Positions 2 through 22,135 of a DNA stretch of 64,000 nt are shown piece by piece. Source of the stretch: Clostridia bacterium (lineage in GTDB: Bacteria; Bacillota; Clostridia; Christensenellales; Borkfalkiaceae); NCBI GenBank assembly GCA_017396365.1, contig JAFQMD010000035.1:2417-66416 (forward strand), read 5' to 3'. A program made the translations under genes and the position numbers. The notes beneath the pieces are model-generated. The model worked only from the letters and a program-made list of their open reading frames with translations. It made no database searches and was not told the DNA's origin. How positions within the stretch are numbered: position 1 is the first letter of the stretch; each line of letters opens with the position of its first letter.

Positions 2-394
2 AACTCGGCGTTTTCAAGTCAAGCAGAGCAAGTTGACGCGAGAAATTATTTAAGTTTTAACGCAAAAAGTCCGTCAAACGAACTTGAAGTTTCGCTTTCA
101 GAAGGCGTAATGACCTTTTCAGGCAAAGGCGCGCTTTATCCCGTTTGCGACGGAAAAGTTTCGTCTATCGTTGAAGAAGACGGTAAATATACTATGACTA
201 TTAGCCATAGCGACTCTTTCAAAACGGTAATTTCAGGCGTTGATTTCGTCTATACCGAAAAGGGAGAAGACGTATTTGGGTATATTCCAGTAGGATATAT
301 CAGCGACGGGAGCGCAAGCGTGTATATGTATGACGAAGAAGTTTTGCTTACAAATTATATCGTTGAAGACGGCGCTATTATATGGGAAAGTTAA
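2..394 (+). CDS. SpoIVFA-like protein with degenerate LytM/M23 fold, C-terminal part (5' end outside window)
   Basis: The frame is open from the window edge, so track ORF 110-394 is only the Met-initiated tail. The segment DGKVSSIVEEDGKYTMTISHSDSFKTVISGV resembles a LytM domain without HxxxD/HxH ligands. It overlaps the SpoIVFB-type gene by 13 nt, as in spoIVFA-spoIVFB. Confidence 0.45.
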   Translation, partial: NSAFSSQAEQVDARNYLSFNAKSPSNELEVSLSEGVMTFSGKGALYPVCDGKVSSIVEEDGKYTMTISHSDSFKTVISGVDFVYTEKGEDVFGYIPVGYISDGSASVYMYDEEVLLTNYIVEDGAIIWES

Positions 395-1212
395 GATTTA
401 AAGTTCATCCACTTTTTATAATTTTAGGAATATACTTTGCTTTTACGGGCAAAGTATTTTCTTTTTTAACCTATACCTTTTCGGCGCTAATTCACGAACT
501 TGGACACTCGTTAAAAGCGCAGAAGTTGGGTTATAGGTTGATTAACGTAACTTTGATGCCTTTTGGCGCGATAATAAAAGGGGATATTTCGGGTATGGGG
601 TATAAAGACGAAATATCCGTTTCGCTTGCAGGGCCTATCGTAAATTTAGCAATAGGAGTAGTTTTGGTTGCGCTTTGGTGGGTTTTCCCTGAGAGTTATC
701 CCTATACCGAACTTGCCGTAGTTTCAAGTTTTGCGCTTTGTTTTATAAATTTAATACCTGCTTTCCCACTTGACGGCGGAAGAATTTTACTTTGCACGTT
801 GTCTTTATTTTTAAAGAGAAAAACCGCGCTTTTAATTTGTAAAGTAGTAGGCTTTTGTTTAGCAATAGTATTTTTTACGCTTTTTATATATTCGTTATTT
901 ATAGGCGTAAATTATTCGCTACTTTTATTTGGAATATTTATGCTTATCGGCGTTTTTGAAAACCATAGCGAAAACAGATTTATTCGCATCTATCAAAGTG
1001 TTTCTTCAAAGTCGCTTAAAGGTGGCAAAAGGGTAAAAACGCTTGCTTTTGACGAGAGCGTAACCGTTAAAAGACTTTACGGGAAAATTGATTCTAACAA
1101 TTTATATAGAATTTTTATATATTCGGATAGCGGAAAGTTAAAAAGAATTTTTGAACCGCACGAGATAGTAAGTATATTGCAAAGCAAGTCGCCGTATGAA
1201 AAGTTAGTATAA
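382..1212 (+). CDS. spoIVFB: Site-2 (M50) intramembrane metalloprotease, SpoIVFB type
   Basis: HELGH motif near the N-terminus, NLIPAFPLDGGR second motif, and several hydrophobic helices. Confidence 0.8.
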   Translation: MGKLRFKVHPLFIILGIYFAFTGKVFSFLTYTFSALIHELGHSLKAQKLGYRLINVTLMPFGAIIKGDISGMGYKDEISVSLAGPIVNLAIGVVLVALWWVFPESYPYTELAVVSSFALCFINLIPAFPLDGGRILLCTLSLFLKRKTALLICKVVGFCLAIVFFTLFIYSLFIGVNYSLLLFGIFMLIGVFENHSENRFIRIYQSVSSKSLKGGKRVKTLAFDESVTVKRLYGKIDSNNLYRIFIYSDSGKLKRIFEPHEIVSILQSKSPYEKLV

Positions 1213-12936: not shown

Positions 12937-12964
12937 AGCCGAGATTTTTCTCGGCTTTTTATTT
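12937..12964 (+). terminator. Rho-independent terminator
   Basis: AGCCGAGA-tttt-TCTCGGCT followed by a T-run. Confidence 0.8.
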
Positions 12965-13015
12965 ACAAAAAATTTAAAAACATGCTTTAAAACAGTAGAA
13001 AAAATCAAGGGAATT

Positions 13016-13024
13016 TGATATAAT
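13016..13024 (+). promoter_or_regulatory. Extended -10 promoter element
   Basis: TGATATAAT about 55 nt upstream of the DUF4116 gene. The -35 is weak. Confidence 0.45.
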
Positions 13025-13077
13025 AATAGATAACATAAAATTTCGCAACTATTAAGCGATTTTTGGAAAAGGACGAG

Positions 13078-14454
13078 ATGGAAAATTACAGCGTAAGACA
13101 ACTTTCGGTCATAGTTGAAAATTACCCAAACGACGAGACTATGCAAAAAGACAGAGAGATTACTTTGGCGGTAGCCAAACGCAGTCCCTCGGTTTTGTCG
13201 TACGCCGATCCTTGCTTTTTGTCCGATAGAGAAATTGCGTTAGAGGCGGTTAAGTCCGACGGGCGCGCGCTTAGATTTTTTAGCGAAAATATAAGAGAAG
13301 ATGAGGAAGTTGCCCTTCTTGCCGTTCAAAATTTTTGCAACAGTTTTGCTTTTGTCGTTGGCAAAGCGCGAAAAAGTCGCCAAGTTGCCGAAGCCGTTGC
13401 AAAAAGGGGTAGCGACGTGATAGAACTTTTAGACGAACGGTTTTTAGACGACGAAGAAATTGCGCTTTTGGCAATTTCGAGAAATCCAAAGTCGCTCAAA
13501 TATTTTTCCGAAAGGGTGAGAGCGCAAGAAAAAGTCGTTTTGACGGCTCTATCAAAAGATAGAACTACCATTGAAATGGTTTCCGACGAGGCGTTTTCAA
13601 ACAAAAAGGTATTTGAAAAGGCGGTTGGTGTCGGTTACGACGGTAAAATTAGAGTTTCAAATTTAACTAATAATTCTCCGCAAGGCGTTTTTGACGAGAT
13701 TGAAAAAAGAGAACTTTCGTTCAACCTTGCAATGCAAAACCTTGATCTTTTGCAAATCGACGAGCAAAAACTTAAGGTTTGCTTAGAGTTCGGCGTAGGC
13801 GTAATAAACAAAAAGAACGAACTTTTAAAAAGGTGTATTTTAAGCGATAATATATCGCTCGTTTCACTCATAGTCAAAAGGGGCAGTTTTACTTCAAAAA
13901 CGATATCAGACAGTATAAAATTCGCCTCGCAAAACAGAAAGGTAAGGGTTTTGCCCGTCCTTTTAAAACTTACGGGTGGGCTTGGTGAAAACGCCGACAA
14001 CGGCAGAAGCGACAGAATGTATTTAATGCGTTCGTTAAGGCGTAAATCCCCAACGGCGATAGTTAGGTTTAAAGAAAATATTAAAGATTATCTTTTAGAT
14101 AAAGAAATTATGCTTTTAGCGGCTTGGGCTGACGGAAGTATTATAAAGTTGCTAACTAACACCGACTACGTTTTAGACGAGAAGTTCGTTACAGAATGTT
14201 TAAAAAGTTACGTAGTTAAAATAAGCGACGGCGCAATTTTAGACGGGCTCAATTTGAATTTGACTTACGAGCAAGCCGAAATCGCTTGTAAAAAAGACGG
14301 TAGAAATTATTTCTATTTAAAAGAAGAATATAAAAAGGATTGCCACTTTGCCAAACTTGCCGTAAGTTCTTGCGAATACGTGTACGACAGCCTTCCCGAA
14401 GAATTTAAGCAAATGCCTGAAATAATAAAGGAGAAAAGGCTATGGATAAGATGA
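13078..14454 (+). CDS. DUF4116-repeat protein
   Basis: At least nine repeats of about 24-25 aa of the form D(R/E)E(I/V)AL.AV...G.AL.(F/Y). Examples are DREIALEAVKSDGRALRFF and DEEIALLAISRNPKSLKYF. I prefer the ATG at 13078 to the TTG at 13063. Confidence 0.7.
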   Translation: MENYSVRQLSVIVENYPNDETMQKDREITLAVAKRSPSVLSYADPCFLSDREIALEAVKSDGRALRFFSENIREDEEVALLAVQNFCNSFAFVVGKARKSRQVAEAVAKRGSDVIELLDERFLDDEEIALLAISRNPKSLKYFSERVRAQEKVVLTALSKDRTTIEMVSDEAFSNKKVFEKAVGVGYDGKIRVSNLTNNSPQGVFDEIEKRELSFNLAMQNLDLLQIDEQKLKVCLEFGVGVINKKNELLKRCILSDNISLVSLIVKRGSFTSKTISDSIKFASQNRKVRVLPVLLKLTGGLGENADNGRSDRMYLMRSLRRKSPTAIVRFKENIKDYLLDKEIMLLAAWADGSIIKLLTNTDYVLDEKFVTECLKSYVVKISDGAILDGLNLNLTYEQAEIACKKDGRNYFYLKEEYKKDCHFAKLAVSSCEYVYDSLPEEFKQMPEIIKEKRLWIR

Positions 14455-15737
14455 TTGAACTTGCAAACGAAATTTTATCCACGGCAATTTTGAATTTAAG
14501 TGGAGAGTTTACCTATTTTGCATACCCCATAGGGCTTATGAATTTTCAAATTGCGGACGGGGCAGAAAGAGTCGTTACAAATGGGAAAACGGCGTATATA
14601 GACAAAAACTACGCTGTGGAAACGACTGCCGAAAAGGGCGTAGTAGGCGTTTATACGGCTATTTTACACGCGACGCTACATTGCTTATTTACTCATCCTT
14701 TTTCGTATGTTGAAAATCAAAAAGAGTACGATTTATCAACGGACATAGTGGTTGGGTATATAACTGACGGGCTTGGCTATCCCTTTGGGGATAAGACAAG
14801 TCAAAACAAACGAAAAGCCGTCTATAAGTCGATTATTGACGCTTACGGCGGTGTAAGTGACGCAAACGCAAGCAAATTTTGCAAAACTTTGCAACTTGAT
14901 GAGATAGAGAGTTTATCGAAGTTTTTTACCGTGTGCGACCACGGGGCGTGGGCTGGTAGGCGTCAAGAGTACTGCAGGGAAGAAAACGGCGAAGATACTC
15001 CGATTTCGATTTCATTTTCATTAGGCGAAGAAGAGAAAGTTGAAGATTTGCTTTCCGCTTGGAAAACTTTATCGCAAACGCTAATTCCGCAAATTGGAAA
15101 ACTAAACCCCGAACTTAAAAGGGCGCTATCGCTAAAAGTTTGTCCAAAAACTAATTATAAAAGTTTTTTAAGGTCGTTTTTAAGGCGAAAGGAAAGGGTT
15201 TTACAAAACGACGAAGAATTTGATTATATTGCATATTATTACGGGCTTAGAGAGTATGGAAATATGCCGCTTATAGAAGGGCTTGAAACTAGCGACGATA
15301 GAGATTATTCTGAAATTGCTTTCGCCGTGGATACGTCTGGCAGTACGGACGGCGAGCCTATAAAAAAACTGCTTGAAGAAGTTTTTTCTATGTTAAAGAG
15401 CATGGAAACTGGGCTTAAAAAATACGCCGTAAGAATTATTCAATGCGATTTAAAAATTCAAAGAGAAGATTTGATAAAAAGTTCTGACGAATTTTCAAAA
15501 ATGCTTGAAAATTATCAACTTTTAGGTGGTGGCGGAACTGATTTTAATCCCGTATTTAAACGCCTTACCGAATTAAAGAAAAAGGGAGTAAAAATCGAAG
15601 GTTTAATCTACTTTACCGACGGCGTGGGCGTGTATCCTAGCGAGATTCCCCCGTTTAAAACTTGTTTTGCTATACTTGGAAATGAAAATGACGTCCAAGT
15701 TCCACACTTTGCTTACAAAATCAATATAGAGGTTTAA
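14442..15737 (+). CDS. DUF2201-type protein: degenerate metallopeptidase-like N-domain plus VWA domain
   Basis: The N-domain has LHATLHCLFTH where the family carries HExxH. The C-domain has a MIDAS motif, DTSGS. It overlaps the upstream gene by 13 nt. Confidence 0.7.
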   Translation: MDKMIELANEILSTAILNLSGEFTYFAYPIGLMNFQIADGAERVVTNGKTAYIDKNYAVETTAEKGVVGVYTAILHATLHCLFTHPFSYVENQKEYDLSTDIVVGYITDGLGYPFGDKTSQNKRKAVYKSIIDAYGGVSDANASKFCKTLQLDEIESLSKFFTVCDHGAWAGRRQEYCREENGEDTPISISFSLGEEEKVEDLLSAWKTLSQTLIPQIGKLNPELKRALSLKVCPKTNYKSFLRSFLRRKERVLQNDEEFDYIAYYYGLREYGNMPLIEGLETSDDRDYSEIAFAVDTSGSTDGEPIKKLLEEVFSMLKSMETGLKKYAVRIIQCDLKIQREDLIKSSDEFSKMLENYQLLGGGGTDFNPVFKRLTELKKKGVKIEGLIYFTDGVGVYPSEIPPFKTCFAILGNENDVQVPHFAYKINIEV

Positions 15738-15738
15738 T

Positions 15739-17154
15739 ATGAATATTTTAGAAGCCAAAAACGAAATAAAATCAGCCGTTAAAATTTATCTTGAAAAGGA
15801 CGAAAACGGCGACTATATCATTCCAGAAGAAAGACAACGTCCCGTATTTTTGATAGGCGCGCCCGGTATCGGTAAAACTGCTATTATGAGCAAAATTGCC
15901 GACGAACTCGGTATAGGATATATAGGTTATACGATAACTCATCACACTCGTCAGTCGGCGATAGGACTCCCGTATATTACCCAAAAGGAATACGGTGGAA
16001 AGAGTTATTCGGTAACCGAATATACTATGAGCGAAATAGTTGCGTCCGTTTACGACGCCATTGAAAAGCAAGGCAAAAAAGAAGGAATTTTGTTTATCGA
16101 CGAAATAAACTGCGTTTCCGAAACGTTAGCGCCTGCAATGCTCGAACTTCTGCAAAGAAAGAGATTTGGCCCGCATAAAATTCCCGACGGGTGGATATTG
16201 ACCGCCGCGGGTAACCCCGAAGAGTACAATAAGTCGGTAAACGAACTCGATATGGTAACGCTCGACCGTGTAAAAAAGATTGTCGTAGAACCCGATTACG
16301 ACGCGTTTAAAGTCTATGCGTACAATAGCGGATTACACGATTCTATAATATCTTTTTTATCTCTTCACAACGAGTTTTTGTTTAAAGTTGAAAGGTCTGA
16401 AAACGGTCTTTATTTCGTAACGCCGAGAGGTTGGGAAGACTTATCTACGGCAATAAAAGAGTACGAAAGGCTTGGAATTAAGGTTACCGAGCAATTCGTT
16501 TCGCAATACGTTCAATATCCGCAAGCGTCGTCCGAGTATATGAGATTTTACAAAATTTACACTCGTTTTGAAGAACTTAAAAGCGGTGAAAAAATTGAAA
16601 ACGGAGAGGTCGAAAGCACCGATTTGACGGGTGATAATTTTGAAGTTAGATACGCGCTTTCTGAAATTTTAAGGGCAAAGGCTATAAAACTTTCTGAAAA
16701 AGCCGAGTCTAAAATTCAGGCTTTAGAATACGTTGAAAGCGTTTTGAAAAAGGCTGAAAAAGACGGGCAAATTCTCATTACTGAAACGGAAAGTTTGATT
16801 AAAAATCTTCACGGAAACAAACTTAGTAGATATCAAAAGATTGCCTATAAGCCGATTATCGACGTTTTTCAAAGCCAAAATCCGCAGCGAGAAGGCGAGA
16901 AGTTTAAAGAGCAATGCTTAAATTACTGTAAGGATAAAATGGGACAGATTGCAAACGTCTTGCGCTTTGCTGAAAATTCTTTGTCAAAAGGTCAAGAGTT
17001 TGCGTCGCTTACCGCAGGTATGATTGCAAACGAAAGTTTTATAACCCTTATAACCAAAAACGGATGGGAAGAAATTTTTCATTATTTTGACGGGCTTACG
17101 GATAGCCAAACTGACAAACTTAAAGAAAAGGCAAGCAGGCTTTTAAAAGGTTGA
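15739..17154 (+). CDS. MoxR-like AAA+ ATPase with long C-terminal helical extension
   Basis: Walker A GAPGIGKT, Walker B ILFIDEIN, sensor LTAAGNPEEY. About 170 extra C-terminal residues. Confidence 0.8.
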   Translation: MNILEAKNEIKSAVKIYLEKDENGDYIIPEERQRPVFLIGAPGIGKTAIMSKIADELGIGYIGYTITHHTRQSAIGLPYITQKEYGGKSYSVTEYTMSEIVASVYDAIEKQGKKEGILFIDEINCVSETLAPAMLELLQRKRFGPHKIPDGWILTAAGNPEEYNKSVNELDMVTLDRVKKIVVEPDYDAFKVYAYNSGLHDSIISFLSLHNEFLFKVERSENGLYFVTPRGWEDLSTAIKEYERLGIKVTEQFVSQYVQYPQASSEYMRFYKIYTRFEELKSGEKIENGEVESTDLTGDNFEVRYALSEILRAKAIKLSEKAESKIQALEYVESVLKKAEKDGQILITETESLIKNLHGNKLSRYQKIAYKPIIDVFQSQNPQREGEKFKEQCLNYCKDKMGQIANVLRFAENSLSKGQEFASLTAGMIANESFITLITKNGWEEIFHYFDGLTDSQTDKLKEKASRLLKG

Positions 17155-17155
17155 T

Positions 17156-18862
17156 ATGAAGATATTTAAATATTTCTCAAGATATAAAGCGGGGTGTGTT
17201 CTCGCTCCGCTTTTTAAACTTGTCGAAGCCTTGCTCGAACTTTTTATTCCTATAATCGTTGCTAAAATAATAGACGACGGCGTTGTCGGCGGTAACGGAC
17301 AAGCCATAACTTACGGCGTTTTAATAATGGTTGCGCTCGGAGTGTTAGGGCTAGGGTTTTCTATCGCAGGACAATATTTTTCGGCAAAGACGGCGGTTTC
17401 GTATTCGTCCGATTTAAGAGAGTCGATATACAAAAAACTAATGGGACTGTCCCTTTTACAGACTGAAAAACTCGGTACGGCAAAGATGATAACGACTATG
17501 ACGAGCGACGTTCAAAAAGTCCAAAGCGGTGTAAATTTGGCGCTTAGGCTTTTGCTTAGGTCTCCGTTCGTCGTGCTCGGCGCGTTTATTGCGGCGCTTA
17601 TTATTAACGTAGAAATCGCAATTATATTCGCCACTATAATAATCGTGCTTTCGATTGTCGTAGTTTTGATTATGAAAATTACTATGCCAAAATTTTCTTC
17701 GGCGCAAAGAACGCTTGACGAGGTGTCTTTAGTCGCCCGTGAAAATTTGACGGGAACAAGAGTTATTAGGGCGTTTGGCGTTGAAAATAAAGAAAAAGAC
17801 GACTATTTAAAAAAGATTAGCGCCTTAGAAAAAATGCAAAACAACGCGGGTAAAATTTCCGCGCTTTTAAACCCTTTGACCTTTTGCGTGATAAACCTTG
17901 GAATAATCGCCCTTTTGTATTTTGGCGGTGTAAAAGTTGAAGTCGGCGCGCTAACTTGTGGGGCGGTAATCGCCTTATACGACTACATGTCGCAAATTTT
18001 AGTCGAACTTATTAAGTTTGCAAACTTAGTAGTTAGCATTTCAAAAGCGCTTTCGTCAGGCAAGAGAATAGATGAAATTTTATCGATTGAAGAAGAAAAA
18101 ATCGACGCAAAAAAAGACGTAAAAAACAGTGCTTTTATTGAATTTAAATCTGTAAGCGCTTCTTACGGTGGCGGAGAAGTCTTATCTAATATAGATATAA
18201 AGATTGAAAAAGGGCAAACGGTTGGAATAATCGGCGGAACGGGTAGTGGTAAAAGCACGCTAATAAATTTAATCGGCGGACTTTATACCCCGAAAGACGG
18301 CGCAATTTATATAGACGGAAAAGACGTATCTTCTATGACTGACGGAGATAGAAAAAGTTACGTTTCAATCGCGTTGCAAAAGCCCGTTCTATTTAAAGGA
18401 ACGATAAAGAGTAATTTGTTATCTGCAAACCCAAACGCAACCGAAAGCGATATGAAAAGGGCTATTGAAATTGCGCAGGCGGTTGACGTTGTAAAGGGTA
18501 AAGAAAACGCCTTAAATTCGGTAGTGGAACAAGGCGGTAGGAATTTTTCGGGTGGTCAAAGACAAAGGTTGTCCCTTGCAAGAGCAATAGTTTGCAATTC
18601 GCAAATTTTAATTTTAGACGATTCGTCGTCGGCGCTTGACTATATAACCGATTTAAATTTAAGGCGCGCTATAAAAAATCAAGGCGAAAATCAAACTGTT
18701 ATAATAGTATCTCAGCGAACGGCGTCTTTAAAGGACGCGGATAAAATTATAGTTCTCGACGACGGTAAAATCGTCGGCGAAGGAACGCACCAAACTCTTT
18801 ATGAAACTTGCGAAGTGTATAGAGAAATTGAAGATTCGCAAAAGATGGAGGACGGAGAATGA
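17156..18862 (+). CDS. ABC exporter half-transporter (TMD-NBD), degenerate-site subunit
   Basis: Walker A GGTGSGKST, signature FSGGQRQR. Walker B ILILDD is followed by S instead of the catalytic E. Confidence 0.9.
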   Translation: MKIFKYFSRYKAGCVLAPLFKLVEALLELFIPIIVAKIIDDGVVGGNGQAITYGVLIMVALGVLGLGFSIAGQYFSAKTAVSYSSDLRESIYKKLMGLSLLQTEKLGTAKMITTMTSDVQKVQSGVNLALRLLLRSPFVVLGAFIAALIINVEIAIIFATIIIVLSIVVVLIMKITMPKFSSAQRTLDEVSLVARENLTGTRVIRAFGVENKEKDDYLKKISALEKMQNNAGKISALLNPLTFCVINLGIIALLYFGGVKVEVGALTCGAVIALYDYMSQILVELIKFANLVVSISKALSSGKRIDEILSIEEEKIDAKKDVKNSAFIEFKSVSASYGGGEVLSNIDIKIEKGQTVGIIGGTGSGKSTLINLIGGLYTPKDGAIYIDGKDVSSMTDGDRKSYVSIALQKPVLFKGTIKSNLLSANPNATESDMKRAIEIAQAVDVVKGKENALNSVVEQGGRNFSGGQRQRLSLARAIVCNSQILILDDSSSALDYITDLNLRRAIKNQGENQTVIIVSQRTASLKDADKIIVLDDGKIVGEGTHQTLYETCEVYREIEDSQKMEDGE

Positions 18863-20595
18863 AAAAAGGCGTTATAAAAAGACTTTGGGCTTACGTCGGG
18901 AAATACCGTTTTGCATTTATAATTTCTCTGTTTACGTCGCTAATTTGCGTTGCGGGGCAGTTGTATCTTCCAATACTTTTTGGAAAGGCAACCGACCTTA
19001 TAGTTGGAAAGGGGCAAGTGGACTTAGCAGGCATTGTTAAAATCGGAATAACTGGGGCTATAAGCGCTTTAATCGCAGGTTTTGCGCAATGGATAACCGA
19101 CGCTATATGTACGGTAATTGCTAACGGAGTAGTTAAAAATTTAAGAAAAGACGCGTTTGAAAAGTTGCAAAAAGTCAAACTTTCGTATTTAGATAAGAGG
19201 GCTGTAGGCGACGTTTTAAGCGTTGAAATAAGTGATACCGAAAAGATTTCCGAAGGTTTACTTTTGGGTTTTTCAAAACTTTTTACAGGTGTTATGACTA
19301 TCGTAGGAACTTTAATTTTTATGATAACCATAAATCCTATAATAGCGTTAGTCGTAGTCGTTTTAACCCCCGTTTCTCTTTTCGTTGCAAAGTTTATTAC
19401 CGGTAAGACGTATAAATTTTTTAAAAGGCAGTCCGAAATATCGGGTAGTCAAACGGGCTTGATTGAAGAGAGCATAAGCAATCTTCAAACGGTAAAAGCC
19501 TATTCTATGGAAGAAGAGTTTACTAAAAAATTTAGTGGAATAAACGACGATTTAAAAAAGACGTCGTTTAAGGCGGTCTTTTTCTCGTCGCTAACTAACC
19601 CGTGTACGAGATTTGTAAACTCGCTCGTTTATTCAGCGGTAGCCTTTTCAGGCGCTATGCTCGCCCTATATTTTGGGCAAGGACTTTTCGCAGTTACGGC
19701 AGGTTCAATTTTGGCTTTGCTTAGTTACGCGAATAGATATACAAAGCCGTTTAACGAAATATCTTCGGTTATGACCGAACTTAGCGGAGCGACCGCTTGC
19801 GCCCAACGAACGTTTGAACTTATGGATGCCGAGAGTGAAGTTGACGACGGTAAAATTACACTAAAAAGCGCGTGTGGAAACGTTAAAATTAAAGACGTAA
19901 GTTTTTCATATTCGCCCGATAAACGACTTATAGAGGGGTTTAACTTAAACGTTTCAAAAGGTCAAAAGGTTGCAATCGTCGGACCTACGGGGTGTGGAAA
20001 AACTACGCTTATAAATCTTTTAATGAGATTTTATGAGATTGACGACGGGCTAATTTCGGTTGACGGAATAGACGTTAAAGATATTTCAAAGTCGTCGCTT
20101 AGAACTTCTTACGGTATGGTTTTACAAGACACTTGGATAAGAAACGCAACCGTAAAAGACAATATAAAAATCGGCAATCCAAGCGCGACGGATGAAGATA
20201 TTATTACTGCAAGTAAAAAAGCGCACGCGCACGGTTTTATAAAAAGATTAGAAAAAGGTTACGATACAAAAATAAGTGAAAATTCGCTTTCGCAAGGACA
20301 AAAGCAACTTTTGTGCATTGCAAGAGTTATGCTTTCACTTCCAGAAATGCTCATATTAGACGAGGCGACTTCTTCGATTGATACGAGAACTGAAATGAAA
20401 ATACAAAGCGCCTTTGACGAACTTACCAAAGATAAGACTTCATTTATCGTTGCGCACCGCCTTTCCACAATCAAAAAAGCAGACGTAATTTTGGTTATGA
20501 AAGACGGAAACGTAATAGAACAAGGCTCTCACGAACAATTATTAAAACAGAAAGGAGTTTATTATCAACTTTACCACAGTCAGTTTGCAAGTTGA
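18859..20595 (+). CDS. ABC exporter half-transporter (TMD-NBD), consensus-site subunit
   Basis: Walker A GPTGCGKTT, Walker B MLILDEATS, atypical signature LSQGQKQ. ATGA overlap with the partner gene. Confidence 0.9.
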   Translation: MKKGVIKRLWAYVGKYRFAFIISLFTSLICVAGQLYLPILFGKATDLIVGKGQVDLAGIVKIGITGAISALIAGFAQWITDAICTVIANGVVKNLRKDAFEKLQKVKLSYLDKRAVGDVLSVEISDTEKISEGLLLGFSKLFTGVMTIVGTLIFMITINPIIALVVVVLTPVSLFVAKFITGKTYKFFKRQSEISGSQTGLIEESISNLQTVKAYSMEEEFTKKFSGINDDLKKTSFKAVFFSSLTNPCTRFVNSLVYSAVAFSGAMLALYFGQGLFAVTAGSILALLSYANRYTKPFNEISSVMTELSGATACAQRTFELMDAESEVDDGKITLKSACGNVKIKDVSFSYSPDKRLIEGFNLNVSKGQKVAIVGPTGCGKTTLINLLMRFYEIDDGLISVDGIDVKDISKSSLRTSYGMVLQDTWIRNATVKDNIKIGNPSATDEDIITASKKAHAHGFIKRLEKGYDTKISENSLSQGQKQLLCIARVMLSLPEMLILDEATSSIDTRTEMKIQSAFDELTKDKTSFIVAHRLSTIKKADVILVMKDGNVIEQGSHEQLLKQKGVYYQLYHSQFAS

Positions 20596-20607
20596 TAACC
20601 ATTTAAA

Positions 20608-21423
20608 ATGAATTACGATCAAAATTTGCACACCCACACGGCGTTTAGCGACGGAAAAGACCAAATGGAAGATATGGTAAAACACGCTATAAAACTTGGG
20701 TTTAAAAGCATAGGTTTTTCTGACCACGCAAATATGGGGTTTGAAGTTACAGGCGCAATGACGAGAGAAAACGTTGCAAAAAGTTTACAGACTTCAAAGG
20801 CTTTAAAAGAAAAGTATAAAGGGCAAATATCCGTCTTTTGCGGACTTGAAAACGACCTGTTCTCAACTCAAGATTTATCGCCTTACGACTACGTTATAGG
20901 CTCTTGCCATTGCCTTATAAAAGACGGGGAAATTATAGAGTTTGACGGCAAGAAAGACCACGTTAAAGGGGTTATAGACAGACTTTTTAACGGAAACGGT
21001 ATGGACTTTGCCGAGTGTTATTACTCTACTTTTTCTCGCCTTGCGGAAACTTCTCGCATAGATATAGTAGGACACGCAGATTTGGTTACTAAGCACTCGG
21101 AGAGAGAGCAGTTTTTCGATTGCGACGGTAAAGCGTATAAAGAGTTTGCTTTAAAAGCGATAAAAAAAGTGTTTGAAAGGTGTCAAGTTTTTGAGATAAA
21201 CACGGGCGCTATTGCAAGGGGATATAAAACTGCGCCGTATCCCGCGCCGTTTATTATGCAAGAATTGAAAAGGTTGGGCGCGAAAATGGTAATTTCATCC
21301 GATTGCCACGATAAAAATTTTTTGGACTGCCAGTTTGATAGCGCGCTATCGTACGCTAAGAGTTTTGGTTTTGACAAAATCTATAAATTCGACGGAAAAT
21401 TCTTCGTAGGATTTGATTTGTAA
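20608..21423 (+). CDS. PHP-family phosphoesterase (histidinol-phosphatase HisJ/HisK-like)
   Basis: N-terminal NLHTHTAFSDGK metal motif, later GFSDH, SCH and GHADL motifs. Confidence 0.7.
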   Translation: MNYDQNLHTHTAFSDGKDQMEDMVKHAIKLGFKSIGFSDHANMGFEVTGAMTRENVAKSLQTSKALKEKYKGQISVFCGLENDLFSTQDLSPYDYVIGSCHCLIKDGEIIEFDGKKDHVKGVIDRLFNGNGMDFAECYYSTFSRLAETSRIDIVGHADLVTKHSEREQFFDCDGKAYKEFALKAIKKVFERCQVFEINTGAIARGYKTAPYPAPFIMQELKRLGAKMVISSDCHDKNFLDCQFDSALSYAKSFGFDKIYKFDGKFFVGFDL

Positions 21424-21443: not shown

Positions 21444-21473
21444 TTGACAAAAAGGTCGTTCCTATGATAAAAT
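21444..21473 (+). promoter_or_regulatory. Sigma-A type promoter
   Basis: TTGACA, then an 18-nt spacer, then TGaTAAAAT. Confidence 0.6.
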
Positions 21474-21493: not shown

Positions 21494-22135
21494 ATGCCTG
21501 TAGAAAACGTAAAGAAAGTTGCATCAAAAAATTCAAATTTAATGCTTAGAGTTGCTGAAGGTCACTTTGCAACCAGCCATAGCCATATCAATTACTATAT
21601 TGACGTTACTATGCAAAAGACGAGATTGTCAGAAGCAAAAGCCGTTGCCACCGCTTTGGTGTCTTATTATAGAGCGAATACCGTAATCGACACTATTTTA
21701 TGTCTTGACGGAATGCAAGTAGTAGGCACTTGCGTAGCCGACGAACTTACACGTAGCAATTTTATGAATATAAACGCGCACAACACTATTTACGTAATTA
21801 CTCCCGAGCATACTTCGGGCAGTCAACTTCTTTTAAGAGATAACATTGCCCAAGCGGTAAGGGGTAAAAACGTTCTCATTTTGGCGGCGTCGGTTACGAC
21901 GGGTTATACGGCAAGTTCGGCAATCGAAGCCGTTAAATACTACGGTGGAAACGTCGCTGGAGTAAGCGCAATTTTCGCAACGGTTGACGAGTGTATGGGT
22001 TATGAAGTTCATTCAGTTTTCGACCCCAAAGATTTAGGCGAATACGCGTCTTACCCCGCTCATCAATGTCCGCTTTGTAAACAAGGTAAAAAAATAGATG
22101 CGCTTGTGAATAGTTTTGGCTACTCCAAAATTTAA
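21494..22135 (+). CDS. Phosphoribosyltransferase-fold protein with degenerate PRPP loop
   Basis: Type-I PRT layout, but the PRPP loop reads VLILAASVTTGYTA, with no acidic pair. Compare [13 protein letters not shown] in this window's PyrE. There is a C-terminal CPLC. Confidence 0.65.
   Translation: MPVENVKKVASKNSNLMLRVAEGHFATSHSHINYYIDVTMQKTRLSEAKAVATALVSYYRANTVIDTILCLDGMQVVGTCVADELTRSNFMNINAHNTIYVITPEHTSGSQLLLRDNIAQAVRGKNVLILAASVTTGYTASSAIEAVKYYGGNVAGVSAIFATVDECMGYEVHSVFDPKDLGEYASYPAHQCPLCKQGKKIDALVNSFGYSKI

Follow-up and report, generated by a model that had tools for sequence, protein, structure and literature searches.

Six open reading frames (ORFs), all on the + strand, form a compact block in the 64-kb stretch of contig JAFQMD010000035.1 analyzed here (i.e., the window), which comes from a Clostridia bacterium of the family Borkfalkiaceae with a 1.70-Mb genome assembly (36 contigs; 91% completeness). 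Genes 1 to 3 encode a protein with DUF4116 repeats (the binder), a VWA adaptor, and a MoxR-class AAA+ ATPase, and genes 4 to 6 encode the two subunits of an ABC exporter (ABC1 and ABC2) and a PHP phosphatase (Table 1). A preliminary description of this DNA had presented the block as one six-gene operon. Its compact arrangement was upheld by our analysis, but its interpretation as one system was not: with moderate confidence, we regard the block as a mosaic, in which genes 1 to 3 make up a self-contained remodeling cassette with a plug-in binder and genes 4 to 6 are neighbors. In the following, L-numbers denote fetched loci, and g-numbers denote genera of the window's taxonomic family.

Table 1. 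Positions of the genes of the block and of the features within and ahead of them.
Feature	Position	Strand	Details
rluD intrinsic terminator hairpin (upstream boundary)	12937..12956	+	8-bp stem, 5 GC pairs, then TTTTTATTT
Promoter-like site, extended -10	12996..13024	+	TAGAAA-17-TATAAT, TG in front; consensus match only
Gene 1, binder	13078..14454	+	458 aa from ATG; 463 aa if TTG at 13063
DUF4116 repeat blocks of binder	residues 26-183 and ~342-457		flank non-repeat core; Pfam and AlphaFold model
Conserved core of binder, with handle	13627..13992	+	residues 184-305; handle ~246-297
Gene 2, VWA adaptor	14442..15737	+	431 aa
Degenerate zincin motif HATLHCLFTH	14667..14696	+	H76, H80, and H85 retained; Ala at position of catalytic Glu
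MIDAS motif DTSGS	15330..15344	+	D297, S299, S301
Gene 3, MoxR-class AAA+ ATPase	15739..17154	+	471 aa
C-terminal all-helical domain of AAA+	16639..17151	+	residues 301-471, model
Predicted handle-docking surface on AAA+	17014-17100	+	residues 426-454, complex model
Gene 4, ABC exporter subunit 1	17156..18862	+	568 aa; neighbor, no cassette component
Gene 5, ABC exporter subunit 2	18859..20595	+	578 aa; neighbor, no cassette component
Gene 6, HisJ-family PHP phosphatase	20608..21423	+	271 aa; neighbor, no cassette component

The junctions were found exactly as first described: in gene order, a 13-nt overlap, a 1-nt gap, a 1-nt gap, a 4-nt ATGA overlap, and a 12-nt gap. No convincing candidate for an internal + strand terminator was seen within the six-gene block. 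The rluD terminator and the extended -10 promoter reported to follow it were both located, the promoter as a consensus match only. The ATG at 13078 is most likely the start of gene 1 because the N termini of its orthologs read MENxSVRQL; for the same reason, the TTG located 15 nt upstream was rejected as a start. Pfam searches bore out the earlier domain calls for all six ORFs, with DUF4116 (PF13475) in gene 1 (120.8 bits; cutoff, 24.9; four stretches), DUF2201 (PF09967) in gene 2 (49.2 bits; cutoff, 26.4), AAA_5 in gene 3 (35.3 bits; cutoff, 22), both ABC_membrane and ABC_tran in each of genes 4 and 5, and PHP in gene 6 (71.4 bits; cutoff, 26.4). NCBIfam provided no name for the gene 1 or gene 2 proteins. 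PADLOC-DB 2.0 returned no family (0) for either of these two proteins and only subthreshold matches for the AAA+ protein (E = 0.0036 to 0.006).

Co-conservation, homology, and motif states were established directly for genes 1 to 3, and the first identifies them as a unit. The AAA+ gene was present in 21 of 151 genomes of the family, belonging to 4 of 23 genera (11/11, 3/3, 1/7, and 5/5 genomes of g1, g21, g22, and g23, respectively). A check of the co-conservation of the DUF4116-VWA-AAA+ triplet, which the preliminary description had proposed, turned out in its favor: the gene order was kept in 17 of the 20 other family genomes holding the AAA+ gene. Of the remaining three, two had contigs too short to tell, and one encoded an 857-aa partner with the same handle (i.e., the conserved module described below). 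In all, the triplet is kept together in three family genera. The order DUF4116-VWA-AAA+-ABC1-ABC2 is found in each of the 11 other genomes of the window's genus, with AAA+ identities down to 53% and with variable flanking genes, and the spacing from the VWA gene to the AAA+ gene is at most 21 nt in nine of these 11 genomes (extrapolated from tblastn coordinates). In g21 and g23, the DUF4116-VWA-AAA+ genes are present without an adjoining exporter.

The exporter follows a different distribution. Orthologs of ABC2 (46 to 57% identity) were found in 100 of the 151 family genomes and in 21 of the 23 genera, including genera that lack the triplet, so that the exporter, which the preliminary description had counted as part of the system, occurs in this family with or without genes 1 to 3; it adjoins them in the window's genus alone. 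In g23, the triplet and the exporter are on different contigs, and the triplet of g21 is not accompanied by an exporter ortholog at an E value of ≤1e-120. Because the exporter is family-wide, the triplet is kept without it elsewhere, and the PHP gene is peculiar to this genome, we consider the triplet to be the unit.

Relatives across public genomes were collected by searching species-representative genomes with an alignment of 16 VWA homologs, and the best 80 of 572 confirmed relatives were kept as loci. They were mostly from gut Clostridia (Lachnospiraceae, Blautia, Ruminococcus, Oscillospiraceae, and Anaerovoracaceae), with a minority from a few Eggerthellaceae, Erysipelotrichaceae, and gut archaea. 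In tblastn searches with the window proteins, 75 of the 80 loci proved to have an AAA+ gene no farther than about 2.6 kb from the VWA gene; the two mostly adjoin each other, and at some loci the handle-bearing gene sits between them. The five loci without an AAA+ gene end no more than 2.4 kb past the VWA gene. Matches to the DUF4116 protein and to the ABC pair were confined to the 4 closest of the 80 loci, and the PHP gene was matched in none of the 80. The exporter was directly beside the pair in 0 of the 76 other loci; at L023, an unrelated ABC pair (23 to 34% identity) is located about 4 kb downstream. A fourth conserved cassette gene was considered and rejected, as the 84 flanking proteins were heterogeneous (Pfam: MatE, four times; GDPD and NAD_binding_7, three times each; and others). 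Among these flanking genes, conflict-type neighbors in the same orientation (TIR-TPR, SIR2, and Macro) were seen at L033:13194-15734, L031:13494-14243, L051:15075-15857, and L033:6635-7513.

Loci without a DUF4116 gene have other partners. Clustering of the neighbors in these 76 loci revealed one large family, with 61 proteins in 55 loci, encoded just before the VWA gene, between the VWA and AAA+ genes, or just after the AAA+ gene. Pfam assigned LRR_5 (leucine-rich repeat [LRR]) to 53 of the 61 partners, DUF4132 alone to 2, and no family to 6, the last including Blautia proteins of 113 to 165 aa. An iterative profile seeded with the C-terminal part of a 165-aa Blautia neighbor converged on 68 of 1142 ORFs, and it matched residues ~246 to 297 of the window binder (E = 1.1e-5) before any DUF4116-type sequence had joined it. 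When this pre-inclusion profile (24 sequences from LRR-type or small partners) was compared with the window's own genome, the binder was the sole match up to an E value of 10 (E = 5.5e-5 among 6365 frames of ≥60 aa). On this profile evidence, the DUF4116 and LRR partners have a handle of about 75 aa in common. The DUF4116 repeats, which had been taken as the defining feature of the system, are therefore not its conserved element; that element is the ankyrin-like handle, which is common to the far more numerous LRR_5 partners.

Of the 80 loci, 61 have a handle-bearing ORF at most 1.5 kb from the pair, and 3 have one at a distance of 5 kb; in 2 of the 80, no core ORF was called. Since 79 of 82 handle proteins lack a hydrophobic segment (i.e., a signal peptide or membrane span), these proteins are taken to be cytoplasmic. 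In a search of 1.84 billion representative sequences, the handle profile matched 3,905 clusters at an E value of ≤0.001 and 395 at ≤1e-10. Of the best 150 representatives, 85 were scanned with Pfam: 62 carried LRR_5 (12 of them also BRCT), 7 were plain ankyrin-repeat proteins, and 16 had no family. Partners of 80 to 165 aa that consist of the handle only, without sensor repeats, were common. Cross-matches to ankyrin proteins, together with the ESM Atlas neighbors of the binder core (mostly ankyrin families, 0.88 to 0.90; leads only), suggest that the handle is ankyrin-like. The window cassette is a rare DUF4116 form of a three-gene cassette spread across gut Clostridia and a few gut archaea, and the common form usually has a cytoplasmic BspA-type LRR protein with the same handle as its binder.

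Several further traits of the partners were recorded. Those with a C-terminal handle frequently terminate in F/Y-D/E-L preceded by basic residues (e.g., KKFEL and KSFDL), as at L013:9407-9904, L029:3982-5007, and L043:8730-9911 and in other LRR-type partners. The strict form, [FYW][DE]L-COOH, was found in 18 of 49 C-terminal-handle proteins, compared with 3 of the 1065 other ORFs at these loci; among the 150 best handle representatives, 47 have it. Such a tail might serve as a peptide that docks at the MIDAS site or on the AAA+ ring. At the position equivalent to the tail of the LRR partners, the window binder has a disordered acidic loop (residues 301 to 309). At L058 (7164-17367), a Clostridia locus, three handle-bearing LRR genes surround the pair, accompanied by a fourth LRR gene, in an expanded binder array.

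The binder itself is a 458-aa alpha-solenoid without a hydrophobic segment and is cytoplasmic. Its AlphaFold model (predicted local distance difference test [pLDDT] score, 90) contains a first run of helix triads of 25 residues each, beginning at residues 26, 51, 76, 101, 126, and 151, with a partial triad at 176; a mixed core (residues 184 to 300); the disordered loop; and a second run of triads beginning at about residues 342, 368, 397, 422, and 447. The earlier count of at least nine DUF4116 repeats was fair, as the model shows about 10 to 12 units in two blocks. The Pfam DUF4116 model is 49 aa long and matched four stretches of the protein, and a self-trained unit hidden Markov model found, besides the six units used to train it, one independent unit at residues 343 to 359. 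When 28 DUF4116-type orthologs were aligned, the sole invariant residues were P201, Q220, A283, P293, and L295, all in the core. Orthologs from g23 lack the N-terminal repeats, start at the core, and have more repeats on the C-terminal side, which shows that the repeats are movable around the handle. A Foldseek search with the binder model returned only generic ARM/HEAT-like solenoids, none at an E value of ≤0.001.

The VWA adaptor consists of a zincin-like N-domain and a DUF2201 VWA domain that spans residues 292 to 430 of 431. Its homologs carry PF13203 together with PF09967, and the N-domain of the window protein aligns with DUF2201_N zincin-like domains. The metal ion-dependent adhesion site (MIDAS) is intact, with D297, S299, S301, T366, and D393 all invariant in the VWA alignment. 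In the N-domain, in contrast to the HExxH of active zincins, the catalytic Glu was kept in 0 of the 83 relatives that have the zincin motif in the fetched loci; HExxH is retained by the distant VWA relatives P0050, P0060, and P0062. We predict that the N-domain is a pseudo-peptidase and catalytically dead. The dead motif has a fixed form, H-x3-H-C-x-F-x-H, with Cys following the second His in 73 of the 83 relatives, which suggests that the site still binds a metal or a ligand. With Pfam, no effector domain was detected, either as a fusion to the VWA protein or elsewhere in the operon, and a PDB sequence search with the VWA profile gave only weak VWA-domain matches (best E = 0.0018).

In the AAA+ protein, the Walker A motif (G40 to T47), D121-E122, N159, R177, and R230 are invariant among 78 sequences; these residues represent the Walker A, Walker B, sensor 1, Arg finger, and sensor 2 elements of an AAA+ core. 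In the regions in which MoxR proteins carry beta-hairpin inserts (helix 2 and ahead of sensor 1), the model (pLDDT, 83.8) has strands at residues 80 to 85 and 88 to 93 after a helix at 68 to 75 and short strands at ~142 to 148, with a pLDDT of <50 for residues 68 to 79. NorQ chains were 7 of the top 10 solved-fold matches (best E = 1e-6; TM to target, 0.49 to 0.61), with other AAA+ clades close behind in the ranking; a PDB sequence search with the AAA+ protein produced no match. The helical extension of about 170 aa that had been noted earlier was confirmed, as residues ~301 to 470 are all-helical in the model. In the control genomes, PF09967 was present in Thermotoga maritima and Deinococcus radiodurans, which hints at a possible kinship of the AAA+ protein to the TM0930 MoxR subfamily, one of nine MoxR subfamilies according to the available part of the source (PMC11432383).

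Both proteins of the pair have phage relatives. The AAA+ protein matched phrog_1297 (E = 3e-44; profile of 356 positions) over residues 32 to 349 only, and the VWA protein matched phrog_1314 over its full length (E = 6e-28). A distant AAA+ homolog is held by 554 phage records, with about 25% identity to the phage proteins. In Pectobacterium phage CB1, two genes annotated as N4 gp24-like and gp25-like are located close together; gp24 and gp25 of N4 are described only as middle genes in the available text of PMC4193335. These matches indicate an apparently ancient and distant relationship between the AAA+/VWA pair and the N4 gp24/gp25-type pair. We also observed AAA+ proteins with 42 to 55% identity on short, unannotated "Bacteriophage sp." contigs from human feces (4 to 15 kb; MT836813.1, MT837836.1, MT835935.1, and others), which are far closer to the AAA+ protein of the window than those of any cultured phage. 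These contigs may be genuine carriers or pieces of bacterial DNA that were deposited as phage.

How the binder could be joined to the pair was addressed by complex prediction, which the preliminary description had suggested for the three proteins. One three-chain job comprised the whole VWA protein, AAA+ residues 280 to 471, and binder residues 184 to 340 as the partner. It scored 0.76, versus 0.00 for the best of three controls; in the calibration, 116 of 157 solved complexes attained the 0.76 mark, as did 2 of 215 mismatched pairs. The three prediction runs share at least 88% of contacts, with a partner pLDDT of at least 73. The predicted binder interface comprises residues 258 to 306, and the lowest-error contacts connect binder residues 277 to 306 (the most conserved helix of the handle and the following loop) to residues 426 to 454 of the AAA+ protein. 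Fewer predicted contacts reach VWA residues 22 to 24, 112, and 219 to 221. On the AAA+ side, conservation is higher at the interface than elsewhere in the domain (mean top-residue frequency, 0.53 versus 0.38; rank 18 of 142 windows). The phage profile phrog_1297 stops before this region, which fits the C-terminal domain as a dock for a third component. PDB sequence searches identified no related solved complex. The model supports docking of the handle on the C-terminal helical domain of the AAA+ protein beside the VWA adaptor.

In NorQ/NorD, CbbQ/CbbO, and RavA/ViaA, the VWA protein bridges the ring and the client, and ATP hydrolysis remodels the client. By analogy, the repeat surface of the binder would hold a cytoplasmic client, the handle would attach it to the AAA+ ring at the C-terminal domain, next to the VWA adaptor, and ATP hydrolysis would, following the general logic of MoxR/VWA pairs, remodel or release the held client. 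Client recognition would thereby be supplied by the repeat protein.

Some of our results weigh against the picture of a self-contained cassette with a docked binder. The docking score is a measure of model confidence, obtained with three chains and custom alignments, unlike the calibration. The control in which the VWA protein was replaced scored 0.00, so the score depends on that protein even though most of the contacts are with the AAA+ domain; accordingly, the model puts the handle in a three-way junction. On the binder side, interface conservation was not enriched (0.49 versus 0.52). A handle gene was not found in 14 of the 80 loci, around half of which are short contigs and which include three archaeal loci. 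Part of the handle similarity may be generic ankyrin-likeness, as 7 of the 85 scanned matches are genuine ankyrin-repeat proteins. Finally, the cassette is followed by the ABC pair throughout the genus (11 of 11 genomes), in the window after a 1-nt gap with no terminator.

What the cassette does is a separate matter from its extent. Tentatively, the foremost candidate role is in immunity or conflict, along the lines of the MoxR-vWA ternary systems; interchangeable LRR or DUF4116 binders would sense invader proteins, and the AAA+/VWA pair would set a threshold or dismantle the target. Consistent with this possibility, the variable part of the binder has repeatedly been displaced (LRR_5, DUF4116, DUF4132, ankyrin, BRCT, or none) while the operon was preserved, several binders occur at some loci (e.g., the three handle genes of L058), the distribution is patchy (4 of 23 genera), with the pair also present in gut archaea, and the pair has phage ancestry. 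Conflict genes are occasional among the 84 flanking proteins (Macro twice; SIR2, TIR-TPR, PLD, FRG, and JAB once each), and the arrangement fits the criteria quoted from Kaur et al. 2020 (PMC7159879), as far as the available text gives them. However, the Pfam searches revealed no effector domain fused to the VWA protein or in the operon, PADLOC returned nothing for the binder or the VWA protein and only the subthreshold AAA+ matches, and the flanks are mostly housekeeping genes, with no integrases among the 84 proteins. The cassette is also single-copy and vertically kept in 11 of 11 small genus genomes; handle-only partners are common, and 16 of the 85 representatives have no Pfam family. Within the genus, binder identities (34 to 54%) are on a par with those of the VWA protein (35 to 54%), so the binder shows no faster evolution.

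A more sweeping form of this idea is rather doubtful. It holds that gut anaerobes carry a very large, undescribed MoxR-VWA class with swappable binders (BspA-type LRR, DUF4116, DUF4132, ankyrin, and some BRCT proteins) on one handle, which would recognize invaders in the manner of innate immunity and dismantle or sequester them without a separate toxin; the window would then hold the DUF4116 form, fixed in a streamlined genome.

It is unlikely that the cassette is a housekeeping chaperone for the maturation or repair of one cellular enzyme or complex, with the binder as a client-specific adaptor. Such a role would agree with NorQ being the closest fold, with the intact MIDAS and ATPase motifs, with stable single-copy retention in the streamlined genus genomes (1.5 to 2.2 Mb), and with the location of the cassette among housekeeping genes. 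Nevertheless, no conserved client gene is linked, as the flanks differ between loci; absence from 19 of the 23 family genera argues against a core function, and the diversity of binders argues against a single client.

Less probable still is a single system formed by all six genes, or by the triplet plus the exporter, in which the MoxR-VWA pair would assemble, regulate, or load the exporter. The tight window junctions, including the 1-nt gap between the AAA+ and ABC1 genes, the lack of an internal terminator, and the five-gene order in the 11 other genus genomes (kept at AAA+ identities down to 53% and with differing flanks) are points in its favor. They are outweighed by the distribution of ABC2, far wider than that of the AAA+ gene (100 versus 21 of 151 genomes; 21 versus 4 of 23 genera), by the separate contigs in g23 and the lack of an ortholog at an E value of ≤1e-120 in g21, by the 76 other loci with no exporter beside the pair, by an AAA+-to-ABC1 spacing that varies from ~5 to ~320 nt across the 11 genus genomes (extrapolated from tblastn), and by the PHP gene, adjacent in 0 of these 11. 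Genes 4 and 5 are the family's housekeeping heterodimeric ABC exporter. The cassette would have landed just upstream of it in an ancestor of the genus and is probably cotranscribed with it, and a genus-specific functional link between the two is conceivable.

The exporter was also put forward as an unusual feature, which it is not. The motifs indicating one degenerate ATP site are as first reported: ABC subunit 1 has the Walker B sequence ILILDDSSS and a Gln in place of the H-loop His (VSQR), and subunit 2 has canonical LILDEATS and AHR motifs with the signature LSQGQ. TM287/288, BmrCD, and LmrCD are heterodimeric ABC exporters with one degenerate ATP site. Genes 4 and 5 resemble exporters of these types in consisting of two half-transporters, and, as in degenerate-site exporters, one subunit has a Walker B Asp together with an H-loop Gln, and the signature of the other is deviant; nothing in genes 4 and 5 departs from this ordinary, well-known type.

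Gene 6 belongs to the HisJ family (NCBIfam TIGR01856; 108.5 bits; cutoff, 90.2) and is a PHP histidinol phosphatase by family. Its inclusion in the system was not sustained, as tblastn searches found it beside the block in none of the 11 other genus genomes. It is an insertion relative to the closest relative, L103, where the PRT-like gene comes immediately after ABC2, with pyrC next. In the window, the PRT-like gene and pyrC lie downstream of the block, and genes for NAPRTase, lspA, and rluD lie upstream (Pfam and NCBIfam). A near-consensus promoter-like site (TTGACA-18-TAAAAT with TG) at 21444-21473 is located ahead of the PRT-like gene at 21494, which therefore probably begins its own transcript.

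It is scarcely credible that the cassette was left behind by a phage or mobile element, as an N4 gp24/gp25-like pair plus a passenger working for that element and not for the cell: the PHROG matches and the 554 phage records point that way, but identity to phage proteins is only about 25%, Pfam found no phage or integrase genes around the window block or among the 84 flanking proteins, the three reading frames are intact across three genera, and two traits, the dead zincin motif and the additional C-terminal domain, are fixed in the cellular proteins.

Taking the block as a mosaic with a three-gene cassette has practical consequences. For annotation, the DUF4116 protein, the DUF2201 protein, and the "AAA family ATPase" belong together, and the exporter and phosphatase stand apart. 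To our knowledge, few AAA+ machines are as poorly understood as MoxR/VWA pairs, for which clients have been identified in only a handful of cases. The shared handle and the predicted ATPase docking site provide a concrete, testable architecture, in which the handle is a means to pull out clients. The LRR version is carried by cultured gut species (judging from record titles, Blautia schinkii, Blautia luti, and Anaerocolumna, among others), in which the system could be studied. BspA-type LRR proteins are usually regarded as surface adhesins; most of the top handle matches scanned are cytoplasmic proteins of this type, and a minority of the 3,905 clusters are true ankyrin proteins. Literature searches retrieved no description of a DUF2201-VWA/AAA+/LRR or DUF4116 cassette, although the supplements of Kaur et al. 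2020/2021 lay outside the search and might list DUF2201-type pairs. New here are the DUF4116 variant, the handle uniting DUF4116, LRR, DUF4132, and minimal partners, the predicted AAA+ docking site, and the finding that the exporter and phosphatase are mere neighbors of the cassette.

As the preliminary description had anticipated, the triplet matched no characterized MoxR-VWA system. The window cassette differs from its own LRR version in having DUF4116 solenoid units for LRR_5, an internal rather than a C-terminal handle, and a location beside a housekeeping exporter where it is vertically kept. In the N4-type pair, unlike the cassette, the gene order is reversed and interrupted (Pectobacterium phage CB1), and the N4-type ATPase profile does not include the C-terminal docking region of the window AAA+ protein; a phage handle partner was not searched for. 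NorQ/NorD and CbbQ/CbbO likewise combine an AAA_5-type ATPase with an adjacent VWA protein that has an intact MIDAS. In contrast to these systems, the cassette has no linked client enzyme, a DUF2201-type VWA protein with a zincin-like N-domain, a helical AAA+ extension of ~170 aa, and a third, handle-bearing repeat protein. RavA is a MoxR ATPase with a client-binding domain C-terminal to its AAA+ core, and it works with the VWA cofactor ViaA. The C-terminal domains of RavA and the cassette ATPase have no detectable sequence relation, and the cassette, unlike RavA/ViaA, is predicted in the complex model to use a solenoid or LRR partner docked via an ankyrin-like handle.

In overall organization, the cassette resembles the MoxR-vWA ternary conflict systems, described as VMAP, iSTAND, FtsH, and beta-propeller types (Kaur et al. 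2020, PMC7159879) and as iSTAND2 and TERNS3 (Kaur et al. 2021, PMC8195603) in the available portions of these papers. They share with the cassette a MoxR plus vWA core and a third protein of varying architecture. The Pfam model bpMoxR matched the AAA+ protein below its cutoff (E = 0.0011). The third component of the cassette is none of the six types named in those portions, as Pfam identifies it as DUF4116, LRR_5, DUF4132, Ank, or BRCT. Unlike the ternary systems as there described, the cassette has no effector fused to its vWA protein, which is of the DUF2201/pseudo-zincin type, and its hosts are gut anaerobes, whereas the hosts that those portions give for the ternary systems are multicellular bacteria.

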